The position numbers and the translations under genes are program-made. The notes beneath the pieces are model-generated. The model saw nothing but the letters and a program-made list of their open reading frames with translations, was not told where the DNA came from and ran no database searches. A DNA stretch of 33,417 nucleotides from IMG/VR virus record IMGVR_UViG_3300033153_008111, positions 1 through 33,417 of that record; one strand, 5' to 3'. Below, piece by piece: positions 1,893 through 30,827 of this stretch (within the stretch, counting starts at the first letter, position 1; every line of letters starts with the position of its first letter). The stretch comes from a virus. Taxonomy: Duplodnaviria; Caudoviricetes.

Positions 1893-1894
1893 TT

Positions 1895-3499: not shown

Positions 3500-3500
3500 T

Positions 3501-4581: not shown

Positions 4582-4600
4582 CACACATTATGTGAATACA

Positions 4601-5653: not shown

Positions 5654-5877
5654 TATTTTTTATCCTTCTTCGGAACTTCAATTCCGGCTTCTTTTAGAAA
5701 GTCTTCCCAATCGTCACCGGCTTGGGCTTTTAACATTCCTATTGCAATTTTTGCGTTTGTCATTTGCAGATCCAAAAGCAAATCAACCCTTCGACAAGTT
5801 CTTTCAAATGATTCCGCAATATCACAAACGGCATTTACAAAATCGTTATCCTGCTGATATTCAGAAAATAGACTCAT
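5653..5877 (-). CDS. Small hypothetical protein
   Basis: Overlaps both neighbours in operon fashion; AAGGAG RBS. Confidence 0.7.
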   Translation of the reverse strand: MSLFSEYQQDNDFVNAVCDIAESFERTCRRVDLLLDLQMTNAKIAIGMLKAQAGDDWEDFLKEAGIEVPKKDKK

Positions 5878-11214: not shown

Positions 11215-11226
11215 GGATAAATTAAT

Positions 11227-11871: not shown

Positions 11872-11873
11872 TT

Positions 11874-12410
11874 ATGGAGAAACTAATGACCAGAGATTCT
11901 TTATTAGAAATAATATCAAATAATACTTCAATACGAAATAAATTATCATTTAAAGAACACTTAGAATTATACGATTATGTTACAAATCTTTCAGAAATTA
12001 ACTTAGCTAAATTAATCGAAGAGGTAGAACCTCCTGAAACTAATCCTAAATTACAAAAGTTTTTAACTATGGGACTTGCAGCAGCAAGTTTGTTATTGCC
12101 TGTTCCGGGATTAACAGCTGTTGTTTTATATGCAACAGATATAAATATGTATAAGTGTAGAATGAGATGTGAAAAGGAAGGATCTTCAAATAAAGAATTA
12201 TGTTATAGGAAGTGTAAATATTTAGCGACTAAATGGGCGGTGAAATGGGTAGAAGGTGAAATTAAAAAATGTAGTAAAACTAAAACTCCTTTTAAGTGTC
12301 AGAAAAAATTATTCAAACTTTTAAAAGCGGTTAAATTAAAAGAAACGAAAGAAGAAATTATATTCAAGCAAAAACAAAAGGAAGCTAACTGGAAGGCATC
12401 AAGGAGATAA
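11874..12410 (+). CDS. Twin-CX3C protein with hydrophobic segment
   Basis: CRMRC-X10-CYRKC...CSKTKTPFKC. N-terminus LLEIISNN...LSFKEH aligns with LLDIAVNS...VTFKQH of the previous gene. Confidence 0.75.
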   Translation: MEKLMTRDSLLEIISNNTSIRNKLSFKEHLELYDYVTNLSEINLAKLIEEVEPPETNPKLQKFLTMGLAAASLLLPVPGLTAVVLYATDINMYKCRMRCEKEGSSNKELCYRKCKYLATKWAVKWVEGEIKKCSKTKTPFKCQKKLFKLLKAVKLKETKEEIIFKQKQKEANWKASRR

Positions 12411-12412
12411 AT

Positions 12413-13060
12413 ATGCAAAAATTTCAGCGTATTTATGATTACATTCATGAATATCAAAGTTTGGTTTATGACTATTATTCCAAAATTGCCGTTGCATATT
12501 TAGTTACTTATTATAACCTTGATAAAGATGAAACCGTTTGGGACGATACTGATTTGTTTGGTGGTTCTTATGAAAGAACAGGTACTGATCTCAGTGGAAT
12601 AAAACGAAATAAAATTTTATTACTTCCTGTTTTCTTTCCAGAAGAAGTTAGTACTGTATTTGATGGTCAAGAAACAGGTTACCATAAGGTAAATGAAACC
12701 TCCTTTGTAATGCCAAGTACATATGGAATAACTCCATACCCGGGAGATATAGTCAAATTAGAACAAGAATATTTAAATCCAACAGATGATACATATCCAT
12801 TATTTATAGTGGAAGGAGTTGAAATATCAGTAAATACTGAAAGACGTTTTTGGAAAATTAAATTAAAAACATTTGAAAATCAAAAAGTTTCTGCTATTGA
12901 TGTTCAAGTTACAAATACTTATGCTTTTATGGAATATGATAAAACAATTCATACATTAGAAGATTCCGCACTTATGACAAAGCTCCTATATAAAAACAGT
13001 CTATTACGGGAAAATCTAAAACATCTATATGACGACAATTCGGGTTTCTATTTAATATAA
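12413..13060 (+). CDS. Virion structural protein, possibly neck/head-closure (T4 gp14-like)
   Basis: PYPGDIVKL...LFIVEGVE...WKIKLK resembles the head-closure beta-barrel pattern; structural context. Confidence 0.45.
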   Translation: MQKFQRIYDYIHEYQSLVYDYYSKIAVAYLVTYYNLDKDETVWDDTDLFGGSYERTGTDLSGIKRNKILLLPVFFPEEVSTVFDGQETGYHKVNETSFVMPSTYGITPYPGDIVKLEQEYLNPTDDTYPLFIVEGVEISVNTERRFWKIKLKTFENQKVSAIDVQVTNTYAFMEYDKTIHTLEDSALMTKLLYKNSLLRENLKHLYDDNSGFYLI

Positions 13061-13072
13061 AAGGAATAATAT

Positions 13073-15520
13073 ATGTCAGATTCTATTTCAACTCAGATTA
13101 ATTTATCAAGAGATTCTATAAGAGAGCAATTGATTTCCTATATGAAGAATAATCTTGAACTTGAAAATGTGGATCTTACGAAATCGTCATTTCTATCATT
13201 TTTAGTAAATGTTTTATCAAGTCTAACAAGTAATTTATTATTCTATCAAATGTCTGTTTATAAAGAATTCTTTTTAACACAGGCGCAACTTCCCGAAAGT
13301 ATTTTTAATTTATCTGCCTTTCTAGGTTATAATTCGCCAAATGCAAATTATTCAAATGCAACTGCAATTGTTACCGTTCCGTTTGGGTTTCCAGATGCAA
13401 CCAATATATTTACAATTCCTACTGGGTTTAAATTTAAAACAGATAATGAAATTCAATTTGTTACCTATTATACAGTGACAGTTACTGTAACTAGTAATTC
13501 AAGTGTAACTGTTGTATTAACAGAAGGAACTAAAAGATATAATTTAGCCGTTGATGTTGGTAGTTCGGATTTTTCATTTGCTCTACCATTAAGACAATAT
13601 AAGACAGTTATACAAGAATTTAAGATTGATGATTATCTTGAAGAATATCAATTTGTTACAATTGATGTTCCTATGACGGGCAAAGTTGCTGAAATGGAAG
13701 TAAAATTTATAGATCCAACTGATCTATCAGAAACAATATGGACGGAATTTGATAGTTTATATCTTATGAATGAAACATCAGAAGGGTATGTTTCAAGAAG
13801 AACCGATTCAGGAAGAAGATTATATTTTGGAAATAATTTAATTGGGGTTCAACCTACTGCTGGATCAACATTAATAGTTACAACGAATGAAACAGAAGGA
13901 GCTAATGGAAATATAATAGCCGGATCAATTAGAACAGGCGAACGTCTTTATACTACAATTGATTTAGGAACAAATCAATTAGTAAGTTATGATGTAACAA
14001 ATCCATCTTCAGCTACTGGAGGAACTGACGAAGAATCTCTAGAAGCGATTAGAAGTAATTCTATTGCTGCTCTTACAAGTTTAACAAGATTAGTAACTGA
14101 AAATAATTATAAAAATATAGATACTGTAATTCCAAATGCCCCTCTTGGAGCAAATTCTCTTACAGTCAAAAAAACATCTGATATAAAAACAAATGAAACT
14201 AATTTATATAGTTCAATTGAATTTGATGGTGATATTGTTCCTACAAGATCTATTTATTATGAAGTTCCTTATTCTACTACTTTTATTCCTCGTGGAACAA
14301 CAATAACATTTGATTCAATAGACTACTATACTATTTTTTATATGAACATTGATATTTTAAATTCGGTTGCTGAATATATATATATTTTGGACGAACTTGA
14401 GCAAATTCCTACACTTATTACTAGTTATTCTTCACAATACGATCTTATTATAAGTAATCTTGTTGTATCTAAAGTTGGTAACAAAGCGGTATTTACACTT
14501 CACTATATAAGTACAGAAACTAATTATGAAAATTGTACTTGCAAAATGCAATTTGCTTCAACTGAAATTACTCACGCAATGACAAATGATTCAACTGCAA
14601 GTACTTTCACATATGAATTTCCTTTATATACCACAATTCCGGAAGATGATCAATTATATTACTTTACATTAACAGATCCATCATCTATAGATATGGCTAG
14701 ATATTCAGCAACACTTACATTTGCCAAAGATTGTTCTGGATTCATGTTATCAAATACCAATTATGACGGGACAGATACAACAACTATATATGATATTCCA
14801 GTAATAAAGAAAAGTTATTATGATAGTATTAATCAAAGAACATTTGAAAGTTCTGTATTACAACCTATAATTTCATCATTAGGATTAACTAGTTATAGAA
14901 TGTTATCAGATTTTACAAATTTTAAATTTGTAAATACTACTGGAAATTGTGTAAATATGAAATACAATCCCCCAACTCGAACCTCAGTTATTAATTTAAG
15001 AGGTTCCGCCCCAACAGGAATGGATGTAGGGGATAGATATATTTTAACTACTGGAACATATCAAAATTATATATTCGAAGCAACTGATTCAACATCTGGA
15101 ACATATATAGAAGCTATAACTGATGATATTGTACAAGTTACTAGTTTAAATAAATTTTATATTTATTCAGATATAGGTTGGATTGAAATTCCAGAGTATA
15201 CAATTCCATTTGAAATTGAAATTGAGATATTCAAGGAATCATCATATGCAGATTCTAATACTACATTATCAGACACAATTAAAACAGCTATTGTAAATAA
15301 TTTTCAAAGTCGATTTGGAGCAAACCTTGCTTTATACAGGTCCGAAATAATTGACACGGTTCAAAGTATAGATGGTATAGATCATTGTAGGTTATTACAA
15401 CCTACATCAAATATATTTTTCAGTTTCGAAATAAGTGATTTGTCTGAGGATGAACTATTGGAATATACCCCTGATTATGTTTATTTCGATTCTTCTAATA
15501 TTACGGTAAGGATAATATAA
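13073..15520 (+). CDS. Baseplate wedge protein, T4 gp6/baseplate-J-like (uninterrupted copy 1)
   Basis: EFFLTQAQLPESI..L...LGY, LYFGN..IG..P..G, GGTDEESLEAIR...RLVT..Y and SEIIDTVQSIDGIDH motifs. Confidence 0.85.
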   Translation: MSDSISTQINLSRDSIREQLISYMKNNLELENVDLTKSSFLSFLVNVLSSLTSNLLFYQMSVYKEFFLTQAQLPESIFNLSAFLGYNSPNANYSNATAIVTVPFGFPDATNIFTIPTGFKFKTDNEIQFVTYYTVTVTVTSNSSVTVVLTEGTKRYNLAVDVGSSDFSFALPLRQYKTVIQEFKIDDYLEEYQFVTIDVPMTGKVAEMEVKFIDPTDLSETIWTEFDSLYLMNETSEGYVSRRTDSGRRLYFGNNLIGVQPTAGSTLIVTTNETEGANGNIIAGSIRTGERLYTTIDLGTNQLVSYDVTNPSSATGGTDEESLEAIRSNSIAALTSLTRLVTENNYKNIDTVIPNAPLGANSLTVKKTSDIKTNETNLYSSIEFDGDIVPTRSIYYEVPYSTTFIPRGTTITFDSIDYYTIFYMNIDILNSVAEYIYILDELEQIPTLITSYSSQYDLIISNLVVSKVGNKAVFTLHYISTETNYENCTCKMQFASTEITHAMTNDSTASTFTYEFPLYTTIPEDDQLYYFTLTDPSSIDMARYSATLTFAKDCSGFMLSNTNYDGTDTTTIYDIPVIKKSYYDSINQRTFESSVLQPIISSLGLTSYRMLSDFTNFKFVNTTGNCVNMKYNPPTRTSVINLRGSAPTGMDVGDRYILTTGTYQNYIFEATDSTSGTYIEAITDDIVQVTSLNKFYIYSDIGWIEIPEYTIPFEIEIEIFKESSYADSNTTLSDTIKTAIVNNFQSRFGANLALYRSEIIDTVQSIDGIDHCRLLQPTSNIFFSFEISDLSEDELLEYTPDYVYFDSSNITVRII

Positions 15521-15523
15521 AAA

Positions 15524-18500
15524 GTGTCAGATTCTATTTCAACACAAATTGATATATCAAGAGATTCTATAAAAGAACAGGTTAGTACATATCTTAAAGA
15601 ATATCTTGAAATTGAAAATGTAGATCTTTCAAACTCCTCATTTTTATCATTCCTGGTAAATATTTTATCAACACTCACAGGAAATATATTATTTTACCAA
15701 CTCTCCGGTTATAAAGAATTTTTCTTAACTCAAGCACAACTTCCTGAAAGTATTTCCAATTTATCTGCATTTCTAGGTTATCATTCAAACATGGCGGAAT
15801 ATGCGACTACAAATGTTGTTATGACTGTTGAGTTTAATTTTCCAGACGATTCAAATACATTTACAATTCCATCTGGATTTAAATTTAAAAGTAATAGTAT
15901 AGAATTTGTAACTTATTATACATCTGATGTAGAGGTCACAAGTAATTCAGAAGTTAATATTTTAATTACAGAAGGTGATAAAAAATACTATCTTCCAGTA
16001 ACAATAGGAAGTGGAACCTTTTCTTTTGCATTGCCGGTACGTCAATATAAAACAAATACACAAGAATTTCAGATAGATTTGGATATTGAACCTTATCAAT
16101 TTTTAACCATTGATGTTCCCTTATCTGGAAAAGCTACATCTATAAATGTAACTATTTCAGAACCAGGAAATGCAGCAACTATTTTATGGACTGAATATAA
16201 TAGTTTATACTTTTTAGATCAAACTACCAAAGGGTATGTCGTAAGAAATACAAGTTTTGGAAAAAGATTATTTTTTGGAAATGGTTTAATTGGAAGTCAA
16301 CCTTCTGCAGGATCTAATATAACAATAGTTATAAATGAAACTGAAGGAACTATTGGAAATATTGATGCTGATTCTATTACATCTGGAGATAAAGTATATA
16401 CATTTATAGAAACAGGAACTAATCAAGCAGTTAAATATACTATGACAAATCCTGTATCAGCTACATGTGGAAAAGATGAAGAATCGGATGAAGAAGTTCG
16501 AAGTAATTCTATTAAACATATCACGAGTTTAGGAAATCTAGTAACAAATAATGATTATAAAAATATTGATGTTGTTGTTGACAATTCTCCTTTATCAGAA
16601 AATATTCTGGCAGTTTTAAAAAGATCTGATATAAAATTAAATGATATTCAACTATATAGTCCAATTGAATTTTCAAGTGAAATAACACCTACTAGAAATA
16701 CTTATTATACAGATCGTACCGACTCGGGTATTGTTTCAAGAGGGACAATAGTAACAACAGATAATGTTGATTATTACACTCTTTTTGATTTAATATTAGA
16801 TTATACTACTTTAATTGCTAAATATAAATATGTAATGTATGAAATTGAACAAATCCCATCCTTAATAATAACACATACCAATTATGGTTTATATGTTATT
16901 AATTTAGTTGTTTCTAAATCAGCTTCTAAAGCAGTTTTTAAATTATATTATACAAGTACCGAATCAAATTTTGAGAATTGTACTTGTGAAATGCAAATTG
17001 TATCAAATGAAACATCTTATAATATGGTTAATGATTCAACCTCGCAAACATTTATATATGAAATTGACCCATATACAACAATCCCTGATGATAAACAGAA
17101 ATATTATTTTTCTATATCAAATCCATCATCCACATTAGTTTCAAAATATTCTACTTCTTTTACATTTGTTAAAGATTGTTCAAAATTTATGTTATCAACA
17201 TTTGAATATACAGATCCATATATTCCAGTTGAATCTTTTGATCCTGTTTCGGTTTCTCCTTTTTATACATGGGTTATTGAAGAAGATACTTATAGTAAAA
17301 CAGATCCTCATCTAGATCATAATATTATATTTAATTCTATTACTGGTAAAGTTGAAATAGTGTATATTGATGATAATGTAAATGAAGGAAGTTATCATAT
17401 AAGCGGAAATAAAGATTCCTTTACAGCCGGAGATTATAGATGCTCTAATATGCAATATCAATCCAAAATAATGTTGGATGATTTTGGTAATATATATTAT
17501 GTTGGTTGGAGTGGAACTGGTTATTTAGGTATTAAAGGTAATGGGTATGGTAGTTATTCTGCCGATGCTTATGATCTAGCTCCCGGGTATAAAATACACA
17601 ATAGTGTGGGCGATAGATATAGTTACAGAGGATTTGATGTAATAACAGGTCTAAATGAAGGTGATATTCATGCGGTTTTTTATGGGTATAATTCAACTTT
17701 AATGATAAATTATGGGACTTACTATACAACAAATGTAACTGGATCATGGGTAACCAAATTTATTTCTGATAAATTTTCATATGTACCTAAAATCAAAATT
17801 GACAGTCTCGGAAATTTATATATTGTTCTACCAAATACAACAACAAATGCTTATACAACAGTTATAGAAAGTTTAGGTACTTGGGAATCAACAAACTATT
17901 CTGCTATTGTTAATTCGTCAATTTCAATGGTTGGAATTGATTTTGATTCTAGTAATAACCTTCATATGGTTGGATTTCATTCATCTATAAATAGTTTAAT
18001 TTATGCCACAAATGTGACAGGTGAATGGGTAAGTCAAACTATTACCCAAATTGATCCTTTAAATAATACAAGTGAATGGACCGGGTCTTATAAACAAATT
18101 TCATTTAAAATAGGTCGTAATAGAACGGTTTATATTCTTCATTATTACACAAGTCTATCAACTACAGCTGCCAAAATGGTTATGAGTAATAATGTTTCAG
18201 GTCAATTTATTAGTTCTATTGTGGATCAAGAAAATGAAACAGGAAGAACATATACTGATTCTGGTGTGCAAATGGATCTTTATATAAATAATATTCATGC
18301 TGTTTATTGTAAATATAATCCTGGTTCTACAGTAATATATTCTTCTCTAGTTTACGGGGTATTCGGGGAATCAGGATATGTTTCATTAACAGATACTAAT
18401 TACTGGGCTCCAGATTCCACTATTTGTAGTTTTGACAGTACTTCTAATACATGGGTATCAGAGGATACATATTCACCAAAAGGTATAAGTCTAACTCCTA

Positions 18501-20791
18501 TAAATAATTGGCAAACAGAGTTTAGACCTACAAAAGCAATAGTCGATTATACAACAGATGTATATGGAAATGAGACCATAATTAAAGATTCAAATGGATC
18601 AACTATCGGAAGTTATTCAGAAGTAGCCCCAGTATTACCTAGTGATATAACTTCAATTGAATACTCACTTCCACATGACTATGCTTGGATTTCAAATACA
18701 TCCAATTTAGACCCAGTTATTACAAAAATAGATCTTACTACAAATATCGCTACGCTTCTTGATGTAGGACCAGAACCAGCTCATAATTATTTTGATGGAG
18801 AATGGTTCTGGGTGTCTCATATTAATGAATATTTTGCAAGATTATACAAAAGGTATGTAAGTGGGGGGTCAGCCGGTTCTAAAGATTTTGGTGATTGGAC
18901 GAATCCAGCATATATGGTAAGTGATGGAACTTATTTATGGCTCTCGTTTTATTCGACATCTACTACAACTAGAATAGCTAAAATAGATGGAACTCTAGCG
19001 CCCGGTAGTTGGATAGTAGATTCAATAGACGATCCTGATATACAATCTACCGTTGTAAGTCCTATATTTAATAGAACTGATATTTGGGCTAGTATAGGGT
19101 TTTCTTGGGATAATCCTGGAACTTTAGTAAAAATTAATACTACTACATGTTCAGTAACAAGTACATATTCTGATGGACCTACTATTAAAAACGCTATTAC
19201 TGGTCTGATATTTGATGGAGAATATTTGTGGTTTTCATGTTCTACATCATCAAGCCTAAATGACGCTTGGATTTCTAAATTTGATATTAATACAGGAACT
19301 GTAATTAATAGTGTTAATATTTATTCAGGGTATACGTTAGAATATGATGGAACTTATATGTATGTAAATGGATTTCTGACTAATACTATAACTGTAATAA
19401 ATGCTGAAACATTTAGCATTGTAAACACTATATTACTTTCTGATACGTCAGGGTCGGGGTCATCAAGTTTGAGTTTTGACGGGGAAAGTATACTGTTGGC
19501 ATGTGGGGATGGTTTTTATAGAGTAAATATTGAAACATATGATGTAAGTGGAAAACTTACTCTCGGCGGTTATAAATCTACTTTTATTACAACTAATGCT
19601 ATACCAATAATAATGGAACCTAATTGTGCAACCATAGATAATAATCAATTAATTAGTATGAGAGTTCTTGCTTTACCATTTTACTCAATATATTATACTT
19701 TAGATGGAACTACTCCAACTAATCAAAGTAATTTATATACAGTTCCATTTTCACTTCCAAATAATTCTACAACCACAGTTAAAACGGTTGCAATTCATCC
19801 AGGGAGAAAAACATCTAAAGTAAAAACTATTGACTATACAACCGGTGGGGGTGAGATGGGACATATTTGGACTGTAAATAGGATTAGCAATACACTTTCA
19901 AAAGTAAATACAATTACAAATACTACGGTTCAAACTATACCTGTAAAATCTAATGCATCTAAAATAGTTTATGATGGTACCTATCTATGGGTTTCAAACA
20001 CATCAACAGATAGTGTATTGAAAATAGATCCAATATATGGGCATGTTTTATACCAGATAGATGTGCAAAATACCCCACAATATATGGTATATGACAATGG
20101 CTATCTTTGGGTATCTAATATAGACAGTCATAGTATATCAAAAATAGATACAACTTCAAATATTGTTGTTGTTAATATTCCATTACCAAACATTTTTCCG
20201 CAAAGAGGATTAGTATTAGATGATAATAACGGTCTTTGGACTGCGGATAGTAGTAATGATCAACTGCTTCGAGTAGATATAATAACTCATGCAGTTACTA
20301 CAGTAGCTGTAGGTACCTATCCATATGGGGTTTTCTTCTTAGATGGTTATATTTGGACAGGAGATGTTCACCAAATGGCTGTTAATACTGTTTCAAAAGT
20401 TGATCCGATAACACAAACTCGAGTTGCACAAATAATGGTTGGAGATGAACCGGTAGGAATGACATTTGATGGTACCTATATTTGGGTTGCTAATTATTAT
20501 GACCAGAATGTATCTAAAATAGAGGCTTCTACCAATACAGTTGTAAATACAATAGCTGTTGGTACTTCAAACCCACACAATATGCTTTTTGATGGAACCT
20601 TTGTTTGGGTTGTTTGTTTGGGTGGTTCGGTGTGTAAAATTGATCCTTTAACTGATAATGTAACTGAGATTTCTTTAACTACCAGCGCTTACAATATTAT
20701 TATGGACGGAACTTATATATATATTGGTCATTATGGGATTGAAAATAAATTAACAAAAATTCATAGAATATACAGTAGGATCTGGAGTTGA
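15524..20791 (+). CDS. Wedge copy 2, N-terminal part, fused to beta-propeller repeats and an FN3-associated (CHB_HEX_C-like) domain
   Basis: First ~555 aa are paralogous to copy 1. Then D..G..H-type repeats, (F/Y)DG.Y(L/I)WV YVTN-like repeats and IYYTLDGTTPT. GTG start. Confidence 0.85.
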   Translation: MSDSISTQIDISRDSIKEQVSTYLKEYLEIENVDLSNSSFLSFLVNILSTLTGNILFYQLSGYKEFFLTQAQLPESISNLSAFLGYHSNMAEYATTNVVMTVEFNFPDDSNTFTIPSGFKFKSNSIEFVTYYTSDVEVTSNSEVNILITEGDKKYYLPVTIGSGTFSFALPVRQYKTNTQEFQIDLDIEPYQFLTIDVPLSGKATSINVTISEPGNAATILWTEYNSLYFLDQTTKGYVVRNTSFGKRLFFGNGLIGSQPSAGSNITIVINETEGTIGNIDADSITSGDKVYTFIETGTNQAVKYTMTNPVSATCGKDEESDEEVRSNSIKHITSLGNLVTNNDYKNIDVVVDNSPLSENILAVLKRSDIKLNDIQLYSPIEFSSEITPTRNTYYTDRTDSGIVSRGTIVTTDNVDYYTLFDLILDYTTLIAKYKYVMYEIEQIPSLIITHTNYGLYVINLVVSKSASKAVFKLYYTSTESNFENCTCEMQIVSNETSYNMVNDSTSQTFIYEIDPYTTIPDDKQKYYFSISNPSSTLVSKYSTSFTFVKDCSKFMLSTFEYTDPYIPVESFDPVSVSPFYTWVIEEDTYSKTDPHLDHNIIFNSITGKVEIVYIDDNVNEGSYHISGNKDSFTAGDYRCSNMQYQSKIMLDDFGNIYYVGWSGTGYLGIKGNGYGSYSADAYDLAPGYKIHNSVGDRYSYRGFDVITGLNEGDIHAVFYGYNSTLMINYGTYYTTNVTGSWVTKFISDKFSYVPKIKIDSLGNLYIVLPNTTTNAYTTVIESLGTWESTNYSAIVNSSISMVGIDFDSSNNLHMVGFHSSINSLIYATNVTGEWVSQTITQIDPLNNTSEWTGSYKQISFKIGRNRTVYILHYYTSLSTTAAKMVMSNNVSGQFISSIVDQENETGRTYTDSGVQMDLYINNIHAVYCKYNPGSTVIYSSLVYGVFGESGYVSLTDTNYWAPDSTICSFDSTSNTWVSEDTYSPKGISLTPINNWQTEFRPTKAIVDYTTDVYGNETIIKDSNGSTIGSYSEVAPVLPSDITSIEYSLPHDYAWISNTSNLDPVITKIDLTTNIATLLDVGPEPAHNYFDGEWFWVSHINEYFARLYKRYVSGGSAGSKDFGDWTNPAYMVSDGTYLWLSFYSTSTTTRIAKIDGTLAPGSWIVDSIDDPDIQSTVVSPIFNRTDIWASIGFSWDNPGTLVKINTTTCSVTSTYSDGPTIKNAITGLIFDGEYLWFSCSTSSSLNDAWISKFDINTGTVINSVNIYSGYTLEYDGTYMYVNGFLTNTITVINAETFSIVNTILLSDTSGSGSSSLSFDGESILLACGDGFYRVNIETYDVSGKLTLGGYKSTFITTNAIPIIMEPNCATIDNNQLISMRVLALPFYSIYYTLDGTTPTNQSNLYTVPFSLPNNSTTTVKTVAIHPGRKTSKVKTIDYTTGGGEMGHIWTVNRISNTLSKVNTITNTTVQTIPVKSNASKIVYDGTYLWVSNTSTDSVLKIDPIYGHVLYQIDVQNTPQYMVYDNGYLWVSNIDSHSISKIDTTSNIVVVNIPLPNIFPQRGLVLDDNNGLWTADSSNDQLLRVDIITHAVTTVAVGTYPYGVFFLDGYIWTGDVHQMAVNTVSKVDPITQTRVAQIMVGDEPVGMTFDGTYIWVANYYDQNVSKIEASTNTVVNTIAVGTSNPHNMLFDGTFVWVVCLGGSVCKIDPLTDNVTEISLTTSAYNIIMDGTYIYIGHYGIENKLTKIHRIYSRIWS

Positions 20792-20840
20792 TGGTCTGAT
20801 TAAACACAATACAATCTTATTATAAGGAGAATAATAATTC

Positions 20841-23123
20841 ATGCAAGTTGGTACTGTATATATATCACCTGGAGATGGATCAGAAATACAACCAACTGAT
20901 ACCATTACCATTACATGTGATACATCCGATGTTTATATTTATTATACTTTGGATGGAAGTACTCCTACACAGTTATCAACTTTATACACTGTCCCGTTTA
21001 TAATTGGAGATAACACAACTCAAGTTAGTGCACGAGCGTTTGCTGTTCCTCAAGAAGTAACCCATTATATGAGATTAGAAAATGACGAAGCAATAGCAAA
21101 TTTTGATATTGTATCAGACACAACTAATTCTATGGAATTGAGTGACATATCTTTATATAGTGATATTCCTCTAGTAGGAACATTAACAACTACATTAATA
21201 GATGAAACTAATTTTTATGAACTTAGAGGGGCAAAAACAGATCCAAACACTAATATTCAACATATCTTTTATGTTGATAATGAAAATACTTTATATCATG
21301 CATATGGGAATGGAGATTCATTTAATATAGAAGAAGTTACATCTAGTAGTCTTTATACACAATCTAATGTAAGTATAGCGTTTGATTCTTCTGGTGACAT
21401 TCATTTAGCAGTAGCAGCTTTCAGCGAAGATGATATAAATTATCTAACTACCCGTGGGTATCTTGGATGGGGGGGTGTACAACGAGTAGGGCATTGCACT
21501 CCAGCTGATTCTTCGTATGATATTATAGACATTGTGGTTGATTCAAACGATGATATTCACATAATTTATACATATGGAACCTCCGGAATATTTCGATCAA
21601 GTAAAATATCAGGAATTTGGTCAAAATTTCAAGTTGTATATGCTACAAATGATATTGAATCAACTGATATTGTTTCATCTCCAAAAATTAGTATTGATTC
21701 TGATAATGATATTCATATATACTTTAGATGGTATGATAATCTTGGAAGTGAAACATGGCATTTATATTATATGGTTCTTTATAGTAATTTCTATATAACA
21801 ATCCCAATAGATACATCGTTTAAATCAGGAACTTCTTTAGCCACTGATTTTAATGATAAGTCTTTCTTTTCAACTAATGAAGGGGTAACTTCTGAAAGAT
21901 TAATATTAGGAGTTCTTGATTCTACATCAAGTCTATCATATGGAACTTCTGGAAGCGCTGGAGTGACAACACCTCCTATTGATTCCACATCTAATTGGAC
22001 AATATACTCTATATTACTTCCTCCTATTATTGATTCATTTGGTTTATTTCTAACTATATCTTTTAATAAAATGGTTATTATAGATGATATTATTTATTTA
22101 TTGAGTGTTTTTGAAAGTATAGAAGCATCACCAAATACATCGTATTCTATATTATCATCTATTCAACAAAGCAAACTTGGGATTAATACTTGGAATTCAT
22201 ATATTCTTACAGATGGTGACGAAATTATTATAAATGAATATAACGATATTTGGGCTGTTAATAATACACTTTATATTACAGGATATCAAAATAATACAAT
22301 TACAGGTGATCGTTCATTGTTTACATCTGAGTATGATTCAGAAAGAATTATATATGGGTCTCCTGGACCAGGGGCTGCTACTATTTATGATATACCAGTT
22401 ATAAAGAAAAGTTATTATGATGGTATTAACCAAAGGGTTTTTGAGAGTCAAATTTTACAACAAATAGTTTCAAATATAAGTTTAGAAGACTATAAAATAC
22501 TGACAGATTTTTCAAATATTAAATTCACTAATACAGATGGTAAATGTATAAATATGGGTTATAATACAACAAACCGGGTATCAATAATTAATTTAATAGA
22601 TACGCTTCCTTCTATTTCTAATGATGGAGATAGATATATTTTAACAAGTGGGGATTATACAAATTATATAGCCCAATGTACTGATTCAACTGCAAACACC
22701 TGGATATATAAAGAACCTACAACAAACGATATTGTTACGATTACTGCTTTATCAACAAAATATATTTATTCATATAATGGTTGGCTTGAAATTCCAGAAT
22801 ATCAAATTCCTCTTGAACTTGATATTGAAATATTTAAAGAAAATTCATATATAGGATCTAATACAGAGTTAGCAACATTTATCAGAGAAAGTGTTCTAAC
22901 ATCATTTCAAAGTAGATTCGGGTCTAATATTTCTCTATATAGGTCTGAAATTATTGATGTTGTTCAAAGTTTGACTGGAGTTGACCATTGTAGATTATTA
23001 CAACCAGTAACTGATATATTTTTCAATTTTGATTTAACAAATTTGACAAAAGCTGAATTATTAACCTATGGACCAGATTACATTTATTTTGGATCTGATA
23101 ATATAACGGTAAGGATTCTATAA
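20841..23123 (+). CDS. FN3-associated domain, propeller repeats and wedge copy 2 C-terminal part
   Basis: N-terminal IYYTLDGSTPT; last ~245 aa (from TIYDIPVI, 22380) paralogous to the copy 1 C-terminus; AAGGAG RBS. Confidence 0.85.
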   Translation: MQVGTVYISPGDGSEIQPTDTITITCDTSDVYIYYTLDGSTPTQLSTLYTVPFIIGDNTTQVSARAFAVPQEVTHYMRLENDEAIANFDIVSDTTNSMELSDISLYSDIPLVGTLTTTLIDETNFYELRGAKTDPNTNIQHIFYVDNENTLYHAYGNGDSFNIEEVTSSSLYTQSNVSIAFDSSGDIHLAVAAFSEDDINYLTTRGYLGWGGVQRVGHCTPADSSYDIIDIVVDSNDDIHIIYTYGTSGIFRSSKISGIWSKFQVVYATNDIESTDIVSSPKISIDSDNDIHIYFRWYDNLGSETWHLYYMVLYSNFYITIPIDTSFKSGTSLATDFNDKSFFSTNEGVTSERLILGVLDSTSSLSYGTSGSAGVTTPPIDSTSNWTIYSILLPPIIDSFGLFLTISFNKMVIIDDIIYLLSVFESIEASPNTSYSILSSIQQSKLGINTWNSYILTDGDEIIINEYNDIWAVNNTLYITGYQNNTITGDRSLFTSEYDSERIIYGSPGPGAATIYDIPVIKKSYYDGINQRVFESQILQQIVSNISLEDYKILTDFSNIKFTNTDGKCINMGYNTTNRVSIINLIDTLPSISNDGDRYILTSGDYTNYIAQCTDSTANTWIYKEPTTNDIVTITALSTKYIYSYNGWLEIPEYQIPLELDIEIFKENSYIGSNTELATFIRESVLTSFQSRFGSNISLYRSEIIDVVQSLTGVDHCRLLQPVTDIFFNFDLTNLTKAELLTYGPDYIYFGSDNITVRIL

Positions 23124-23125
23124 AA

Positions 23126-26100
23126 ATGACAGACCCTATTTCAACACAAATTGATGTATCAAGAGATTCAATAAAAAGTCAAGTCGGTATGTACTTGAAA
23201 GAATATCTTGAGCTTGAAAATGTTGACCTTACAAAATCGTCATTTTTGTTATTCTTAGTAAATATATTATCAACATTAACAGGAAATATATTATTTTACC
23301 AACTTTCATTATATAAGGAATTCTACTTAACACAAGCACAATTACCTGATAGTATATTCAATTTATCAGCTTTTCTTGGGTATAATTCATCATCTGCAAC
23401 ATATGCTACTTCTAATGTAACAATGACAGTTGATTTTAATTTTCCTGATTCGTCAAATACATTTACTATACCTTCAGGATTTAAATTTAAAAGTGATAGT
23501 ATAGAGTTTGTAACTTATTATAATTCTGCTATTACAATTACTAATAATTCAGCAGTATCTATTTTAATAACTGAGGGGAATAAGAAATATTATCTACCTG
23601 TAACTATAGGAAGCGGATCATTCTCATTTTCATTACCTATCAGACAATATAAAATTACATCCAAAGAATTTAAACTTGCGTCTAATCTTGAACAATATCA
23701 ATTTGTTACAATTGATGTGCCTATAGATGGAAAAGTTTCATCCTTATCAGTAGGTATAACTGTACCTGGAGATGCTATAGTAAAAACATGGACAGAGTAT
23801 AATAATTTATATTTAATGAGCGACACAATTGAAGGGTATGTTTCAAGAAGAACTGCCGATGGAATTACATTATTTTTTGGAAATGGTCTAATAGGAGCAC
23901 AACCTGTCGCTGGATCATCGGTAACTGTTAATATAAATGAAACAGAAGGTATAAGTGGAAATGTTGCAGAAGGAACAATTAATAAAGGAGAAAAAATATA
24001 TACCTATCTAGATTCTGGAGCAACCCAAGTTGTTAAATACACAGCAACAAATTCAGTTGCGGCATTTAATGGAAAAGAAGAAGAAGCATTAGAAGAAATT
24101 AGAAGTAATTCTATTAAGTCAATAACAAGTTTAGGAAATCTAGTCACTAATAATGATTATAAAAATATAAATGTTGTAGTTGATGATTCTCCGTTAGAAC
24201 CAGATACTATAGCTGTTTTGAAAAGATCAGATCTTAGATTGAACGATATTCAATTATATAGTCCTGTAAAGTTTGAAAATGTAATAACACCGACAAGAAA
24301 TGAACAAAGATCTCAAAATTATTATGGAGTTCCTATTCCTAGAGGAACAGTAATATCGTCTAATGGTACAGATTATTATACGCTTTTTGATTTAGATGTA
24401 AATACAGATAGTTCAATGGTAAATTATAACTATGTAATGTATGAGATTGAACAAATTCCATCTTTAATTAAAGATTATGAAACTACATATGATTTTGCGG
24501 TTACTAATTTAATAGTTTCTAATAGTAATAATACATCTATATTTGAATTGTATTATACAAGTACTGAGGTAAATTGTGATTTGTGTTCATGTGAAATGCA
24601 AATAGCTTCAAACGAACGAACATATGATATGACAATTGATTCAACTTCAAGTATTTTTACATTGAATATAACTCCTTATACATTACTACCTGCTGATGAG
24701 CAAATATATTACTTTACAATAACAAATCCAAGTGGTACGGCAGTATCTAAATATTCAGCAACGTTTACTTTTATTAAAGACTGTTCAAAATTTATGTTAT
24801 CAAGTATTGGTGATTATATTGATTCGACCTCTGTACCAGGAGATCCTATAATAATAGATGTAGATCCAGAACCTCCAATTGTTGGTCCTTTATATACTTG
24901 GGAAATTACTGATGATATATATAGTTTTCTAAATATAATATATAATCATATTGATGGAAATACACATATAACATATGAAGGTAATGAAGGAATTTATTAT
25001 ATATATGGAAATAATGGGGTGTATTCAAATCCAGAATTTTTATTTCCTGATGAAGACTATAGTGAAGAATATTGTACAATGGCATATGATAGTACAGGAA
25101 CTATGTATTTTAGTGGAAGAACTGATGATTGGGAGCTACGGTATTATAAATATGGAACCCAGACAGAAATATTAGATGAAGGTCCACTTGGATCAACTTT
25201 CAGTGTAGATATGATAATAGATGATAATGATTATGTTCATATTTTTTATCGAAAATCGAATATACTATATCATACAACAAATTTAAGCGGGGCATTTGTA
25301 AGAGAAGTAATATATACCCATTCTGATGAAAACCCTTGGGGGGCTTCAGTTGTTGCAAAAATAGATAGGGATCAAAATTATCATATTGCTGTTATAATAC
25401 CTGCTCAATATATTCCTGAAACACATGTTTATACTTCTAATATTGCTTATATTTATGGAAATACTGGGAATTGGAGTTCCCCTGACATAGTAGATATTGA
25501 AAATAGATGGGTTCGTGTACATATGGATATTGATAAGATAGAAGTAGGAGTAGTTCATATATCATATTATTCACATGATGATGATCATATTAGATATACT
25601 TCGAATAGTTCAGGAACTTGGGAATATACTAATATACACACATTACCTCCTGTTGATTTAAATAATGATTGGGATATTGCAACCAATAATGTAATTACAC
25701 AAAATAATAAAGTATATATTATAACATGTTATCGTAAGTATGTCTGGGCCCTTGATATTTATAAGTCTACTATAGTAATATCGGTTAAAATAAACAATAA
25801 TTGGATTTCATATAATTTACTTGAGTATACAGATAAAATTATTGCTTTTAGTAGCATGGCTACAAGTTTGTATCATAATTTAATATATTTAGTTTATAAG
25901 ACTACTGCTAGTGGAAATATTAAAAGTGTAACATCTGGAGTATATGGTGAAAGTGGATGGGTTGATGTAACAAATGATCAATTTTGGGAACCAACTCCAT
26001 TGTTGGATAATACTAGTTGGGATAGTACCTCAGAATCTTGGATTTCAAATGATTTAACAAATAGTATTGATCTTATTCCAACTGGAGACTGGGAAACAGA

Positions 26101-27382
26101 TAAAACATTTTCAGAAGCAAGAGTACTTTGTAATGTAGAATCCCCCCCGATTGTTACTGCTTCATTTAAAGATATTAATGAACAAATGATTGGTGAAACA
26201 TCAGCTTTTTCTGAAGAAACTAGTAGTGAAGCATCAGTTACATATTACGAAGCGGCTCCTTTTGCTTGGGTAGGAACTGGAACCGGTTATATAGATAAAA
26301 TTAATTTAGATGATGATTCTATAGAAAACATACTTGTAGGCAGCAATGCCGAAAATACTTTTTATGACGGTGAATATATGTGGGTTTCATGTAGTGACTC
26401 TTTTAATCCATTGATCCAAAAACTTCATAAATATACAAATGAACTTCTTTGTACAACTTTAACTTCTAGTGGAGCTTATGGAACAGTTTTATCAAAGTTT
26501 CCAGAACAAATGTGCAAAGCTAGTTACCTTTGGTTTGTTTGTAATACTAATGACTCAGGAAGTTATAGAGTTCAAAGGATAAGTCTTTATAATTGTTATA
26601 AATATATAGGTATTTCAGAACCTACAGTTGGTGATTATGCTAAAGGTATAGCATATGATGGGAGTAGTATTTGGATTGCTTGGAGTGGCGTATTAGGTAA
26701 TTTTAGTCAGTATGGTATTCATTTAGAGTCTTATGGATCATTTGGAATAAGATCAGAAAGATTATTATTTGCTGGAGGGTATTTATGGTTTTCAGCATAT
26801 GTAGCCGGGGAGTATAGAATATGTAAATTTGATGTATCTTCTAAAACTGTTCTTGATTATGCAGTAATTCCTGATTACACATATGATTTAGCGTTTGATG
26901 GAGTTAATGTTTGGACTACTATAAGAAATGACGCTATTGCAGTTAAAATAAATGCTTCAACAATGACAATTGCAGATAATGTTGCTGTTGGGAATGACCC
27001 AAGAGGAATTACTTTTGATGGAAGTAATATTTTAGTATGTAATTATTATGATGATACTATATCAAGAATTGCTGTTTTAAATGGAAGTGGAACTACAACA
27101 ATAACAGGCATAACAGAAGAACCATGTAATATTGAAATTAGTGAACCTGTTATATATCCGAATCCACATCCTGGTTCAGTACAAGTAGGAACTACTTTAG
27201 CATTAACATGTAGTATATTAGATTATGATATTTACTACACAATAGATGGTTCAGACCCTAATCCCGGTACTTTATATACTGCTCCTTTTACAATACCTCA
27301 TGGCGTAGTTAAAGTAAAAGCAGTAGGAACTTATAATGGTAAAATACAATTATACAATTATACAACTTATTCTCCTTTATAA
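23126..27382 (+). CDS. Wedge copy 3, N-terminal part, fused to propeller repeats and an FN3-associated domain
   Basis: Same architecture as 15524-20791 but lacking the last propeller. Confidence 0.85.
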   Translation: MTDPISTQIDVSRDSIKSQVGMYLKEYLELENVDLTKSSFLLFLVNILSTLTGNILFYQLSLYKEFYLTQAQLPDSIFNLSAFLGYNSSSATYATSNVTMTVDFNFPDSSNTFTIPSGFKFKSDSIEFVTYYNSAITITNNSAVSILITEGNKKYYLPVTIGSGSFSFSLPIRQYKITSKEFKLASNLEQYQFVTIDVPIDGKVSSLSVGITVPGDAIVKTWTEYNNLYLMSDTIEGYVSRRTADGITLFFGNGLIGAQPVAGSSVTVNINETEGISGNVAEGTINKGEKIYTYLDSGATQVVKYTATNSVAAFNGKEEEALEEIRSNSIKSITSLGNLVTNNDYKNINVVVDDSPLEPDTIAVLKRSDLRLNDIQLYSPVKFENVITPTRNEQRSQNYYGVPIPRGTVISSNGTDYYTLFDLDVNTDSSMVNYNYVMYEIEQIPSLIKDYETTYDFAVTNLIVSNSNNTSIFELYYTSTEVNCDLCSCEMQIASNERTYDMTIDSTSSIFTLNITPYTLLPADEQIYYFTITNPSGTAVSKYSATFTFIKDCSKFMLSSIGDYIDSTSVPGDPIIIDVDPEPPIVGPLYTWEITDDIYSFLNIIYNHIDGNTHITYEGNEGIYYIYGNNGVYSNPEFLFPDEDYSEEYCTMAYDSTGTMYFSGRTDDWELRYYKYGTQTEILDEGPLGSTFSVDMIIDDNDYVHIFYRKSNILYHTTNLSGAFVREVIYTHSDENPWGASVVAKIDRDQNYHIAVIIPAQYIPETHVYTSNIAYIYGNTGNWSSPDIVDIENRWVRVHMDIDKIEVGVVHISYYSHDDDHIRYTSNSSGTWEYTNIHTLPPVDLNNDWDIATNNVITQNNKVYIITCYRKYVWALDIYKSTIVISVKINNNWISYNLLEYTDKIIAFSSMATSLYHNLIYLVYKTTASGNIKSVTSGVYGESGWVDVTNDQFWEPTPLLDNTSWDSTSESWISNDLTNSIDLIPTGDWETDKTFSEARVLCNVESPPIVTASFKDINEQMIGETSAFSEETSSEASVTYYEAAPFAWVGTGTGYIDKINLDDDSIENILVGSNAENTFYDGEYMWVSCSDSFNPLIQKLHKYTNELLCTTLTSSGAYGTVLSKFPEQMCKASYLWFVCNTNDSGSYRVQRISLYNCYKYIGISEPTVGDYAKGIAYDGSSIWIAWSGVLGNFSQYGIHLESYGSFGIRSERLLFAGGYLWFSAYVAGEYRICKFDVSSKTVLDYAVIPDYTYDLAFDGVNVWTTIRNDAIAVKINASTMTIADNVAVGNDPRGITFDGSNILVCNYYDDTISRIAVLNGSGTTTITGITEEPCNIEISEPVIYPNPHPGSVQVGTTLALTCSILDYDIYYTIDGSDPNPGTLYTAPFTIPHGVVKVKAVGTYNGKIQLYNYTTYSPL

Positions 27383-27400
27383 AAATAGGAATTTTAATTT

Positions 27401-29704
27401 ATGACAATATCTAATGTAGTAATATCACCAGCAAACGAATCAGCAGTATATCCTACTGACCTGATTACGTTAACGTGCTCGAGTTCGGGGGTTGCTATAT
27501 ATTATACATTAGATGGAAGTACTCCAACTAAAGATTCTAATTTATATACAGTACCGTTTGTTATAGGAAGCGCTACAGAGGTTACCGCCAAAGCATTTAC
27601 TATTTATGGAGATGAATATATAGAGTTAGAGACTGGAGAGGATATAGGGTATTTTAAAATAGATTCAACTTCTGAAATTGATATAATTCTTAATAATGTA
27701 TCGTTATATTATAATAAAGATTTAAAAGGGACTGTTACACAATGGGATACGTCATTCGATGAAACAACATGGAGTGGAGGGAATAGAGGAGAATATAGTA
27801 CAGCAGATGAAAAATATCATGTTATATATTTTGGAGAACCTGGAATTGATCCCCGTGGGGGAGTAACAAGAGGTAATATGATGTATATAAAAGGAACTGA
27901 AGATAATTTCAGTACTCCTATAGATTTAATAGCAACAATGCCACATTTTTATCATAGTCACACCTATCCAAGAATGACAGTAGATAGTAATGGATATGTT
28001 CATCTAATTATATATGACGGTTATATATATTACGGTACAAATAAAACTGGTACATGGGTTGAAGAAGAATTAATAGAAATATATGATATGGATGATGATG
28101 ATAATGATTTAGATATAGTTGTTGATGCTAATGGGTATGTTCATATTGCAGCTTTGATGTCTGAGTATGATGATGGTGATGATGTTGGAGTTTATTATAT
28201 TACTAATAAAACAGGATCATGGACATCTGAGAGAAATGTACAAGCTACGGATTATGATTATATGGCAGGTGGGGTTCAAATAGATGTAGACAAAAATGGA
28301 ATAATTCATATTATTTATGGGATAGTTCCTTATTCTGGAAGTGAAGGATATTATTATATATATGGAAGTATGTGGAGTTGGTCAAGTCCTTCTTTTACTG
28401 GAGTAGACCTAAATGATGGTTCAGCTTTAAGTATGAAAATTGATGCTAACTCAGTAGTTAATTTTACATCATTAATAAATCCTCCAGGCAAATTCTCTAC
28501 TGTGTTATATACAAAAAATGAAACTTCAACTCCTTTGGCTTTTACATCAGAAATCCTTTATCCACCTGCTTCAATTGATTTAACTTTATGGAAATCAAAT
28601 ACTATTATTCTAAGAGAAGAAAATTCTCATATTTTTATACTTATTAGTTATTATAAGACCTACTCACAGAAGATAGTACTTTTTGAAAATTCACAAGATA
28701 TATGGAGAACAGATACTTTACTAGAAGGATATGAGTATAAATCAGGATCTACTGATTACTTACTAGATTTTGTTTATGATTTTGATGTAAATTCAAACAT
28801 TTTATATTATTTTAATATAACTCATTCAATGATTGGGGTATGGGTAGAAACTGTTTTTACAAAAACTGTGACAAATACGGAATACGACCTTAATGTAGGT
28901 AAATCATCTATATCAATACCTGGCCAAGAAGTAACAATTCCTGCTTCTTTAACTATTTATGATATTCCAGTTATACAAAAAGAATTTTACGATGGAATTG
29001 ATAAACGAACATTCGAAACTCAAGTGTTACAAAAAATGATAACATCAATTCATTTAGAAGATTATAAAATACTAACAGATTTTGCAAATATCAAGTTTAC
29101 AAATACGGATGGTATTTGTGTAAACATGCAATATAATTCTACAAATAGAACAGCTGTTATTAATTTAACAGATACCCTTCCATCTGGCATTGATATTCTA
29201 GATGATGGAGATAGATATATTTTAACAAGCGGAGAATATACAAATTACATAGCAACGTGTAGTGATTCAACTTCTGAAATATGGATTTATAAAGAACCAA
29301 CTACAGACGATATTTTGACAGTTACAGAATTATCTGCAAAATATATTTATTCAGATAATGGATGGATGGTAATTCCACAATATGAAATACCTCTTAAATT
29401 AGATATTGAGGTATTTAAGACTTCAAGTTACACAGGTTCTGACACAGAATTGGGAACAAAAATAAGAGAGACTCTCATAAGTTCATTTCAAGATAGATTT
29501 GGATCTAACATCTCATTATATAGATCCGAATTAATAAATGTTATTCATGGAATATCTGGAATAGATCATTGTAGAATTCTAAACCCTGAAACAAATATTT
29601 TCTTTAATTTTGATTTAACTAAATTAACTAAAGAAGAGTTACTAACTTATGGACCTGAATATATTTATTTTGATTCATCTACTATAACCATAAGGATTAT
29701 ATAA
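27401..29704 (+). CDS. FN3-associated domain, propeller repeats and wedge copy 3 C-terminal part
   Basis: Same architecture as 20841-23123; TIYDIPVI at 28952. Confidence 0.85.
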   Translation: MTISNVVISPANESAVYPTDLITLTCSSSGVAIYYTLDGSTPTKDSNLYTVPFVIGSATEVTAKAFTIYGDEYIELETGEDIGYFKIDSTSEIDIILNNVSLYYNKDLKGTVTQWDTSFDETTWSGGNRGEYSTADEKYHVIYFGEPGIDPRGGVTRGNMMYIKGTEDNFSTPIDLIATMPHFYHSHTYPRMTVDSNGYVHLIIYDGYIYYGTNKTGTWVEEELIEIYDMDDDDNDLDIVVDANGYVHIAALMSEYDDGDDVGVYYITNKTGSWTSERNVQATDYDYMAGGVQIDVDKNGIIHIIYGIVPYSGSEGYYYIYGSMWSWSSPSFTGVDLNDGSALSMKIDANSVVNFTSLINPPGKFSTVLYTKNETSTPLAFTSEILYPPASIDLTLWKSNTIILREENSHIFILISYYKTYSQKIVLFENSQDIWRTDTLLEGYEYKSGSTDYLLDFVYDFDVNSNILYYFNITHSMIGVWVETVFTKTVTNTEYDLNVGKSSISIPGQEVTIPASLTIYDIPVIQKEFYDGIDKRTFETQVLQKMITSIHLEDYKILTDFANIKFTNTDGICVNMQYNSTNRTAVINLTDTLPSGIDILDDGDRYILTSGEYTNYIATCSDSTSEIWIYKEPTTDDILTVTELSAKYIYSDNGWMVIPQYEIPLKLDIEVFKTSSYTGSDTELGTKIRETLISSFQDRFGSNISLYRSELINVIHGISGIDHCRILNPETNIFFNFDLTKLTKEELLTYGPEYIYFDSSTITIRII

Positions 29705-29705
29705 T

Positions 29706-30827
29706 ATGGAAAAATTGCTTGCAAAAATTAAAATAAACAAACCAAGAATGAAGTCTGTTCTTGTAAGAGCTGTTGCAACAAATATATCTGGTTTATCAAC
29801 TCCATGTTTCAGACCTTCTATGAAAAAACACTATTATGAATTTTTAAAACTATCTGGATTAACTGAAAAAGATGTTAGAGATTACGCAAAAAGGGTATGG
29901 GTAGGTAGAAAAGAGGCTGTATTTCAACTTCATAAAGAACCTCTTGCTAATTTTTATATTTTTCTAATGCATTATTTTTTAAATAAAAATGACAAATTGA
30001 TGGCACAGTATTTTATGATATTTTATGAATTACGACATTATGCTGCTAGATTTGAAATTCATTTCAAATATTGTCAAGAAGATGTATTTAAATATACATT
30101 AGATACATTAACAAAAACTCATCTATTTTCTAGGGAGAAAACAATTGGGAATGCTATATATTTTCTATCTAAAGAACTTATGAAACAATGGGGACCTGCA
30201 ATTAAAAATTATGATCTTGATAAAATTTCAAAATTTATAACATATGCACGACATAGAATTGCCCAGTCAACTCGTTCATTTGCTGAAACATACTATAAAA
30301 ACGCTGAATTAGGACTAGGAATACAGACTCAAAGAGAACCCGCTGACGACGAAGAGAACTCGTATCAGCATGTTACGACTGACAAATCAACAAGGATTGC
30401 AGAAGAAATAACCAAAAAAATAACGGTCTATAGATATGTAGATCATATAGCTCAAGAAGAATCAAGAAAGCTTACAAAGATTAATAGTTCATTAGCTACA
30501 TTGATTGTTAATAATTTAGGAAATACTAAATACACTGATAAAATTAAGGTTTCATTAGTATTGTTTACCAAAGAGTTAAAAGAAATGAAAATGTTATGTG
30601 GAAAAGATTATTATAAACATGTAAGAAAAATAATGTCAATTAAAAGGACTAAGAGTGAAATTTATTTTAAACAACAAATAAATTCATTAGTTATTGAAGT
30701 ACTAACTGAGGTTAAGTATATAGACAGATACAATAAAGTTACATCTCAAACTCAGTTTTTAATAAATTTATTCTTAGCGTATTATTTAACAATGGTAATG
30801 AGACGAACAGTCTGCCCAAATACATAA
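29706..30827 (+). CDS. Hypothetical basic, probably helical protein (373 aa)
   Basis: Long ORF coupled to the last wedge gene; no motif recognised. Confidence 0.8.
   Translation: MEKLLAKIKINKPRMKSVLVRAVATNISGLSTPCFRPSMKKHYYEFLKLSGLTEKDVRDYAKRVWVGRKEAVFQLHKEPLANFYIFLMHYFLNKNDKLMAQYFMIFYELRHYAARFEIHFKYCQEDVFKYTLDTLTKTHLFSREKTIGNAIYFLSKELMKQWGPAIKNYDLDKISKFITYARHRIAQSTRSFAETYYKNAELGLGIQTQREPADDEENSYQHVTTDKSTRIAEEITKKITVYRYVDHIAQEESRKLTKINSSLATLIVNNLGNTKYTDKIKVSLVLFTKELKEMKMLCGKDYYKHVRKIMSIKRTKSEIYFKQQINSLVIEVLTEVKYIDRYNKVTSQTQFLINLFLAYYLTMVMRRTVCPNT

Follow-up and report, generated by a model that had tools for sequence, protein, structure and literature searches.

How can the gene for a core structural protein be cut in two and still be kept? 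The question is raised by a stretch of 33,417 nucleotides (nt) from a virus (Duplodnaviria; Caudoviricetes), positions 1 to 33,417 of the IMG/VR record IMGVR_UViG_3300033153_008111, referred to below as the window. Three gp6-like baseplate wedge genes lie one behind another in it. The first, wedge A, is intact. The other two, B and C, are expanded, and each is split into two open reading frames (ORFs), B1 and B2, and C1 and C2; wedge A's N half opens B1 and C1, and its C half closes B2 and C2. The answer favored here, at a probability of about 0.57 and from the evidence of sequence profiles, is that B and C are duplicates, each split at the same point of a jelly-roll domain, probably by one old in-frame insertion of a circularly permuted Fn3-propeller gene, and that the chains of each pair probably reassemble by mutual completion of a jelly roll and an Fn3-associated domain.

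The wedge assignment comes from the gp6-like profile phrog_219, which matches the N-terminal regions of A, B1 and C1 (E 1e-27, 2e-23 and 2e-23). TIGR02243 scores under its family cut-off against the wedge proteins, and sequence search gave no solved-structure match for the wedge. The surrounding baseplate module includes GPW_gp25 at 10777 and T4_baseplate at 9806, and alongside its hub and gp25-like genes the window encodes a T4-like terminase. It is a 33.4-kb fragment, the CheckV completeness of the source virus record being 11%; complete relatives have genomes of 277 and 312 kb. The nearest terminase of a cultured phage is 31% identical, and wedge A has no match among cultured phages.

A first-pass annotation, made from the sequence alone, had proposed that both expanded genes are split by a circularly permuted gene, and had pointed to related phages as the place to look for unsplit homologs. 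Among relatives, both wedge halves lie in one ORF at 72 loci (64 unique). No foreign locus showed an expanded copy. In 45 intact wedges the position of the B and C inserts is a loop of 10–17 residues, and the search of whole records covered 50 of the 77 foreign wedge loci. Since the foreign loci lack the expanded copy and, in 67 of 74 cases, the gene directly after the wedge is the one that follows C2 in the window, the expansion is particular to this lineage.

Domains probably completed across two chains

Each downstream chain begins with an Fn3-associated domain (PF13287/PF13290). Further copies lie inside B1 and at the end of C1, and all four exceed the Pfam cut-off (38–51 bits against 22–23). 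The heads of B2 and C2 end with the F strand, at position 77–78 of the 109-position profile, as against 227 of 291 foreign hits that reach the last strand, which bears out the earlier claim that they stop at the penultimate strand. The internal copy of B1 runs to position 94 and the terminal copy of C1 to position 81. Judged by profile, the last (G) strand does not seem to follow the two heads in the same chain. The incomplete heads of B and C are 60.6% identical (non-synonymous difference 0.25, synonymous 0.64), and the complete internal Fn3 domains 34%. [At the DNA level the C2 Fn3 core is 86% identical over 63 nt to that of the internal B1 domain, and the B2 core 73% (window 19688–19750, 20937–20999 and 27497–27559); gene conversion among Fn3 copies is possible.]

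The upstream chains have the complementary deficiency. Their beta domain matches intact homologs with an HHalign probability of 96.6 (E 6.7e-10) and ends at column 87 of 128, short of the last three strands. When this half was used to search 50 related records, it led to a homolog in a fiber-like protein, with poly-serine linkers on either side, and iteration gave 16 intact jelly-roll domains, with homologs in 6 of the 50 records; the seeds were initially found using the window's own N parts. One intact homolog is predicted to fold as a ten-strand sandwich (predicted local distance difference test, pLDDT, 93.9), closest to CBM86 (Z 10.9, root-mean-square deviation 2.6, 110 aligned), with CBM6 at Z 9.7, CBM29 at Z 9.2 and a best Foldseek E of 1.4e-3. 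By this predicted fold the domain is CBM-like, and carbohydrate binding is not implied by the shared fold. A single-sequence fold of B1 940–1369 had a pLDDT of 40.9, too low for use. In the ESM Atlas the N half had no match, and an intact homolog gave an F5/8-type lead; a two-sequence N-part profile run against 1.84 billion representatives found the window's own protein and otherwise two unrelated repeat proteins, which were rejected. The module recurs, in 16 intact copies, in fiber-like proteins of an uncultured phage clade (L161:4134-13464 (G022), L165-L186, L038, L149), frequently flanked by poly-serine linkers and in some cases arranged in tandem; no name for it was found in the searches.

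When placed after the N part, the tail of B2 ranks second among collapsed stretches (9357 tiles, window proteins), and the C2 tail lies just over the 99th percentile, not in the top ten. All reciprocal junctions were then scored jointly with two foreign profiles (224 Fn3 domains and 16 jelly rolls), the window's own loci being excluded from every profile and null. Pair B peaks after residue 1034 of B1 and residue 68 of B2, at 124.3 bits against 104.8 for the native arrangement, and none of 711 random-tail grids is as high (mean 109.4, standard deviation 2.9). Pair C peaks at 101.8–103.0 against 94.8 native. Its peak register, 961–962, is the site chosen in the first-pass annotation, and corresponds by alignment to B register 966–967, which is B's own peak. 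Both pairs point to one homologous crossover. Working without profiles, that annotation had placed the register exactly in C and no more than five residues off in B.

Single swaps were made at one shared register with a slack of 2 residues each way. The swapped tails were equaled or exceeded by 2 of 538 null blocks for the B Fn3 domain, 1 of 533 for the B jelly roll, 8 of 534 for the C jelly roll and 48 of 538 for the C Fn3 domain; the native continuations, in the same order, by 199, 108, 30 and 449, the two Fn3 values (each of 538) being at null level. Each of the four swaps does better than the native continuation, and three score 8/534 or better. Swaps between paralogs were equaled or exceeded by 2, 33, 1 and 7 null blocks. 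The exchange of tails appears to complete both domains better than random tails do, clearly in B and weakly in C. [One MAFFT run put the G-like segment of B1 on the last strand of the jelly roll; this was set aside, the native continuation being at null level (108/533).] Of the earlier proposal, the missing Fn3 strand lying upstream has strong profile support in B and weak profile support in C. The upstream part of the divided beta domain is real, and it is the swaps that suggest where its remainder lies.

A number of results weigh against this reading. Pair C taken by itself is weak: 70 of 733 null grids reach its peak, and a later junction, after the G-like strand and splitting the jelly roll only, scores 101.6. 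The register was picked from the same data, which flatters the swap-test numbers somewhat. The downstream jelly-roll tails are undetected alone by local hidden Markov model or profile-profile search; joined, they add 10.4 bits (B) and 7.2 bits (C), at the low edge of natural tails (7.8–33.3, median 21.6). On a position-specific scoring matrix the upstream G-like segments rank 11 and 12 of 4648, and the native B2 and C2 windows 6 and 9. Conservation of the heads is partly generic, since unrelated Fn3-associated domains already reach 45–55% local identity. No unsplit wedge carrying propeller P1, jelly roll and propeller P4 was found, nor a donor gene: PF13287 is missing from 50 of 50 related records, and the P2/P3 profile matched no foreign ORF. 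The arrangement is known from one virus lineage only.

Some of these results would be expected if completion were one-sided or lacking, with the Fn3 heads closing with their own downstream strand, the G-like segment belonging to the jelly roll, and the chains meeting by two jelly-roll strands or by the wedge core alone; the permuted look would then be partly a resemblance between beta strands. The near equality of the two C junctions, the G-likeness of the native windows, and the alignment of the C1 segment to a jelly-roll strand by the foreign jelly-roll profile all fit. In B, however, the later junction reaches at most 115, the native Fn3 continuations of both pairs are no better than random, and B and C are of single origin. 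We regard this alternative as unlikely.

One split in two old paralogs

That B and C share one origin is evident from trees of both wedge halves (8 duplicates among the 72 wedges dropped), in which they are sisters with support 1.0 and 0.995, A being next with 0.997 and 0.99. Of 114 conserved N-half columns A keeps 103, B 104 and C 103; of 51 conserved C-half columns, 46, 49 and 48. Between B and C the synonymous difference is 0.54–0.64 in nine of ten regions and 0.23 in the ten-codon G segment. At non-synonymous sites the two differ least in the wedge halves (0.22 and 0.17), somewhat more in the Fn3 heads (0.25) and most in propellers, jelly roll and internal Fn3 (0.45–0.53). The adhesin parts have diverged strongly yet stayed open, and the incomplete Fn3 head is conserved. 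The trees, the retained columns and the pattern of divergence therefore indicate one split before an old duplication, with both chains kept under selection.

A second contig matches window 10861–28684 at 99.87% identity, with 4 mismatches and one 20-nt indel, and has both splits. The indel, at ~20771, alters only the end of B1 (1773 amino acids (aa) there, 1755 in the window) and leaves a B1–B2 spacer of 15 nt, with three in-frame stops upstream of the B2 ATG. [With the extra 20 nt (window 20748–20791) propeller P3 regains a longer end that resembles a blade; their lack in the window reflects either a deletion in the strain or a slip in assembly.] B2 is on record in 3 contigs; for C2 there is one further member, equal in length and with one residue different. 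No fused member was found in the B2 or C2 sequence clusters; every contig on record is split, though the samples behind them may not be independent. Viral-contig scans with B2 or the jelly-roll N part matched the sister contig only, and two metagenome scans for relatives gave no match. Read-through between the chains was considered and rejected, C and the second contig's B having three in-frame stops and the window's B a change of frame. Promoter- and terminator-like counts are near chance (150 against 138.8 expected, and 5 against 5.0).

Could B and C be broken spares beside a working A, or assembly errors? An intact A could suffice, the two contigs do disagree over 20 nt where B1 ends, and two foreign wedge genes that are intact in all other respects each contain a single in-frame stop (TGA, TAA; L069:6989-6991, L188:2825-2827), in each case either an error or a nonsense allele. 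However, both halves are as conserved as A, the inserts are open despite synonymous sites apparently near saturation, ribosome sites precede both downstream genes, and the splits are common to both contigs. Of all the alternatives this is the least probable.

The first-pass annotation had also held that short direct repeats mark the crossover points and, as one of two options, that the DNA between them, as a circle, may still excise, toggling a fused and a split wedge. Both repeat pairs are present and in phase, and removal of 2434 or 1389 bp yields stop-free fusions of 1721 and 1729 aa and circle ORFs of 794 and 456 aa; the in-frame fusions are automatic, since in-phase points were chosen. 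The repeats do not fare as well. An 8/10 in-phase match such as pair 2, which lies on the best register, is expected 0.9–1.9 times per 30–45 nt box, that is, at chance level. A 10/11 match such as pair 1 is expected 0.04–0.08 times, but it sits five codons off, on register 961, where the joint score (108.2) is about the null mean, as against the peak at 966; excision there would leave the jelly roll five residues too short and the Fn3 loop five too long. The best B register lacks DNA microhomology (4/10 matches), and conserved recombination sites are absent from the cassette ends. Among assembled contigs on record no empty-site or circle junction was found. The tyrosine integrase family PF00589 occurs in none of five records, two of them complete relatives, a search in which the virus's own genome was ~11% complete and serine recombinases were not included. 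With the split common to old sister paralogs, the DNA appears fixed, and an active switch is very improbable. A circularly permuted insert with reciprocal domain halves is supported by the junction and swap profiles; its repeats as att-like sites do not stand.

A proposed origin and product

The events may be ordered as follows. A wedge copy first acquired propeller-like P1, the jelly roll and propeller-like P4 in its variable loop. A gene circle, with a ribosome site, ATG, Fn3, propeller, Fn3 and stop, would then have recombined once with it, between the F–G turn of its Fn3 domain and a jelly-roll loop, so that chain 1 received the G strand with the propellers, and chain 2 the Fn3 head with the last three jelly-roll strands. 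Duplication of the split unit gave B and C, both retained. A circle is suggested because a single crossover with one gives reciprocal breakpoints and brings a stop, a ribosome site and a start; a linear route would take two matched deletions. Viral genes with a Met start at an Fn3-associated domain do exist. [Propeller P3 starts at a Met (aa 1445) right after a G-rich stretch (window 19844–19858), and C1 ends at about this place. The G-rich stretch could be an old ribosome site, and P3 may have been a gene of its own before it was fused to B1.]

A different order of events would leave the same product: an internal stretch of a tandem Fn3-propeller array could have been inserted, in permuted form, as a continuous chain, with the stop and ribosome site arising later at a domain boundary. 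Such fission has some claim, because no stand-alone donor gene was found, and the ORFs are in the same frame, 18 nt apart in C and 15 nt in the second contig's B. Sharing a frame, however, has a 1-in-3 chance given one ancestral event, the start is located where natural Fn3-first genes start, and the continuous form is absent from the contigs on record. We consider it distinctly improbable.

Under the preferred reading, insertion by a permuted gene, the two chains would assemble 1:1. Chain 1 would give its G strand to the Fn3 domain of chain 2, chain 2 would give three strands to the jelly roll of chain 1, and the wedge halves would pair as in wedge A. As with the two-chain complementation proposed in the first-pass annotation, it is sequence profiles that argue for this. 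The product would be a heterodimer with three interfaces (wedge, jelly roll and Fn3), a Y-shaped subunit that has an adhesin loop as well as a propeller arm left free, and that would probably serve host-surface binding. Speculatively, as T4 and XM1 have two gp6-type positions per wedge (PMC10457771), A, B and C might form mixed baseplates. More tentative again, and rather less probable than the preferred reading, is the general idea that a gene circle opened within its own Ig-like domain is a self-healing insertion, which cuts its target into two genes, supplies the clasp and branches a linear protein. The phage would then use two Y-shaped two-chain wedges and a plain one, displaying about seven propellers and two jelly rolls from the wedge ring.

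If true, this would explain how a core structural gene survived being cut. Single chains cannot branch, and a permuted insertion with trans-complementing halves would be a one-step route to branched proteins. The gp6-like wedge would be directly an adhesin platform, with three paralogs, and the strand swap a small natural clasp of ~15 and ~40 donated residues. For phage annotation there is a caution: neighboring genes separated by a stop may be halves of shared domains.

Feature map and comparison with known systems

Table 1. Wedge genes A, B and C of the window and their parts (P1–P4, propellers or propeller-like domains)
Feature	Coordinates	Strand	Comment
Wedge A, intact gp6-like baseplate wedge, 815 aa, unsplit reference paralog	13073..15520	+	phrog_219 E 1e-27; sister to B+C in both half-trees
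B1, 1755 aa: wedge-N, propeller-like P1, jelly-roll N part, G-like strand, P2, Fn3, P3	15524..20791	+	
B wedge N half, aa 1-558	15524..17197	+	End = variable loop (10-17 aa) of intact wedges
B jelly-roll (CBM-like) N part, aa 946-1034	18359..18625	+	
Pair-1 repeat, upstream copy, 10/11 match	18619..18629	+	Best junction register five codons away; probably chance
B segment resembling last (G) strand of Fn3-associated domain, aa 1035-1049	18626..18670	+	2/538 null blocks
B propeller P2, YvtN/YNCE-like	18671..19588	+	Similarity to P3
B internal Fn3-associated domain, complete	19589..19846	+	
B propeller P3, Vgb/YNCE/YvtN-like	19856..20788	+	Absent from C
B spacer with AGGAG ribosome site	20792..20840	+	
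B2, 760 aa: Fn3 head, jelly-roll C part, propeller-like P4, wedge-C	20841..23123	+	
B Fn3-associated head lacking last strand, aa 1-68	20841..21044	+	
B jelly-roll C part, last three strands, aa 69-110	21045..21170	+	1/533 null blocks
Pair-1 repeat, downstream copy	21053..21063	+	
B wedge C half, aa 516-760	22386..23120	+	
C1, 1418 aa: wedge-N, P1, jelly-roll N part, G-like strand, P2, C-terminal Fn3	23126..27382	+	
C jelly-roll N part, aa 939-1028	25940..26209	+	
Pair-2 repeat, upstream copy, 8/10 match	26203..26212	+	On best register; chance-level
C G-like strand, aa 1029-1043	26210..26254	+	48/538 null blocks; equally may be jelly roll's own strand
C C-terminal Fn3-associated domain	27128..27379	+	
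C spacer, 18 nt, with AGGA	27383..27400	+	Three in-frame stops before ATG, C1 stop included
C2, 767 aa: Fn3 head, jelly-roll C part, P4, wedge-C	27401..29704	+	
C Fn3-associated head lacking last strand, aa 1-66	27401..27598	+	60.6% identity to B head
Pair-2 repeat, downstream copy	27592..27601	+	
C jelly-roll C part, aa 67-105	27599..27715	+	8/534 null blocks
C wedge C half, aa 520-767	28958..29701	+	

Elsewhere in the window, the conserved neighbor directly after the wedge in 67 of 74 related cases is a 373-aa gene (29706–30827) with no family match. Three basic, cysteine-patterned proteins in the baseplate module (9312–9776, 11227–11871 and 11874–12410), also with no family match, have mutually similar C-terminal helices. 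On the minus strand, 1356–7214 holds an RNA-repair-like cluster: a Tpt1/KptA phosphotransferase, an RlaP-like nucleotidyltransferase, a CCA-adding-like enzyme with an HD domain, and a radical SAM protein. Two small ORFs without family match on the same strand (302–763 and 3113–3499) share a DF-NSSS-SF type start, which suggests that they are paralogs.

The literature search, with most subscription papers and supplements outside its scope, returned no description of the arrangement proposed for B and C. Its parts have counterparts. In chaperone-usher pili an Ig-like sandwich without its last strand is completed by another chain, in donor-strand complementation. The donor in the wedge pairs would, in contrast, be internal, the exchange reciprocal across two folds and the product a heterodimer rather than a polymer, with no chaperone in view.

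Adjacent genes that each encode half of one domain, with the halves meeting in trans, have also been described for fractured genes with split inteins (PMC2677866). There the resemblance ends: a Pfam scan of the four wedge chains at E 0.01 found no intein family, it is an Fn3-associated domain and a jelly roll that are split, and covalent ligation is not expected. In the wine-yeast Region B, circular permutation of the insert was read as a sign of a DNA circle (PMC5499181). What is permuted there is a 17-kb cluster of five genes, whereas the opening proposed here lies inside a domain and gives two in-frame chimeric genes.

A further likeness is to nrdA split by the homing endonuclease gene mobE, which stays functional as two chains with no splicing or DNA rearrangement, its insertion-derived tails being interaction domains (PMC3045599). 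The wedge pairs differ in that the target is a structural wedge and its halves are not separated by a free-standing nuclease; instead, the insert would itself have been cut, and a permuted folded domain joined in frame to each of them. Among wedges, T4 gp6 and XM1 gp16 are present as two gp6-like copies per wedge (PMC10457771), and cyanophages P-SSM2 and P-SSM4 are described as having adhesin-like sequence fused to gp7-, gp9- and gp10-like baseplate proteins (PMC1079782). Unlike these, as so described, the window has three gp6-like paralogs, two of them split, with the adhesin in an internal loop and, on the reading preferred here, branched.

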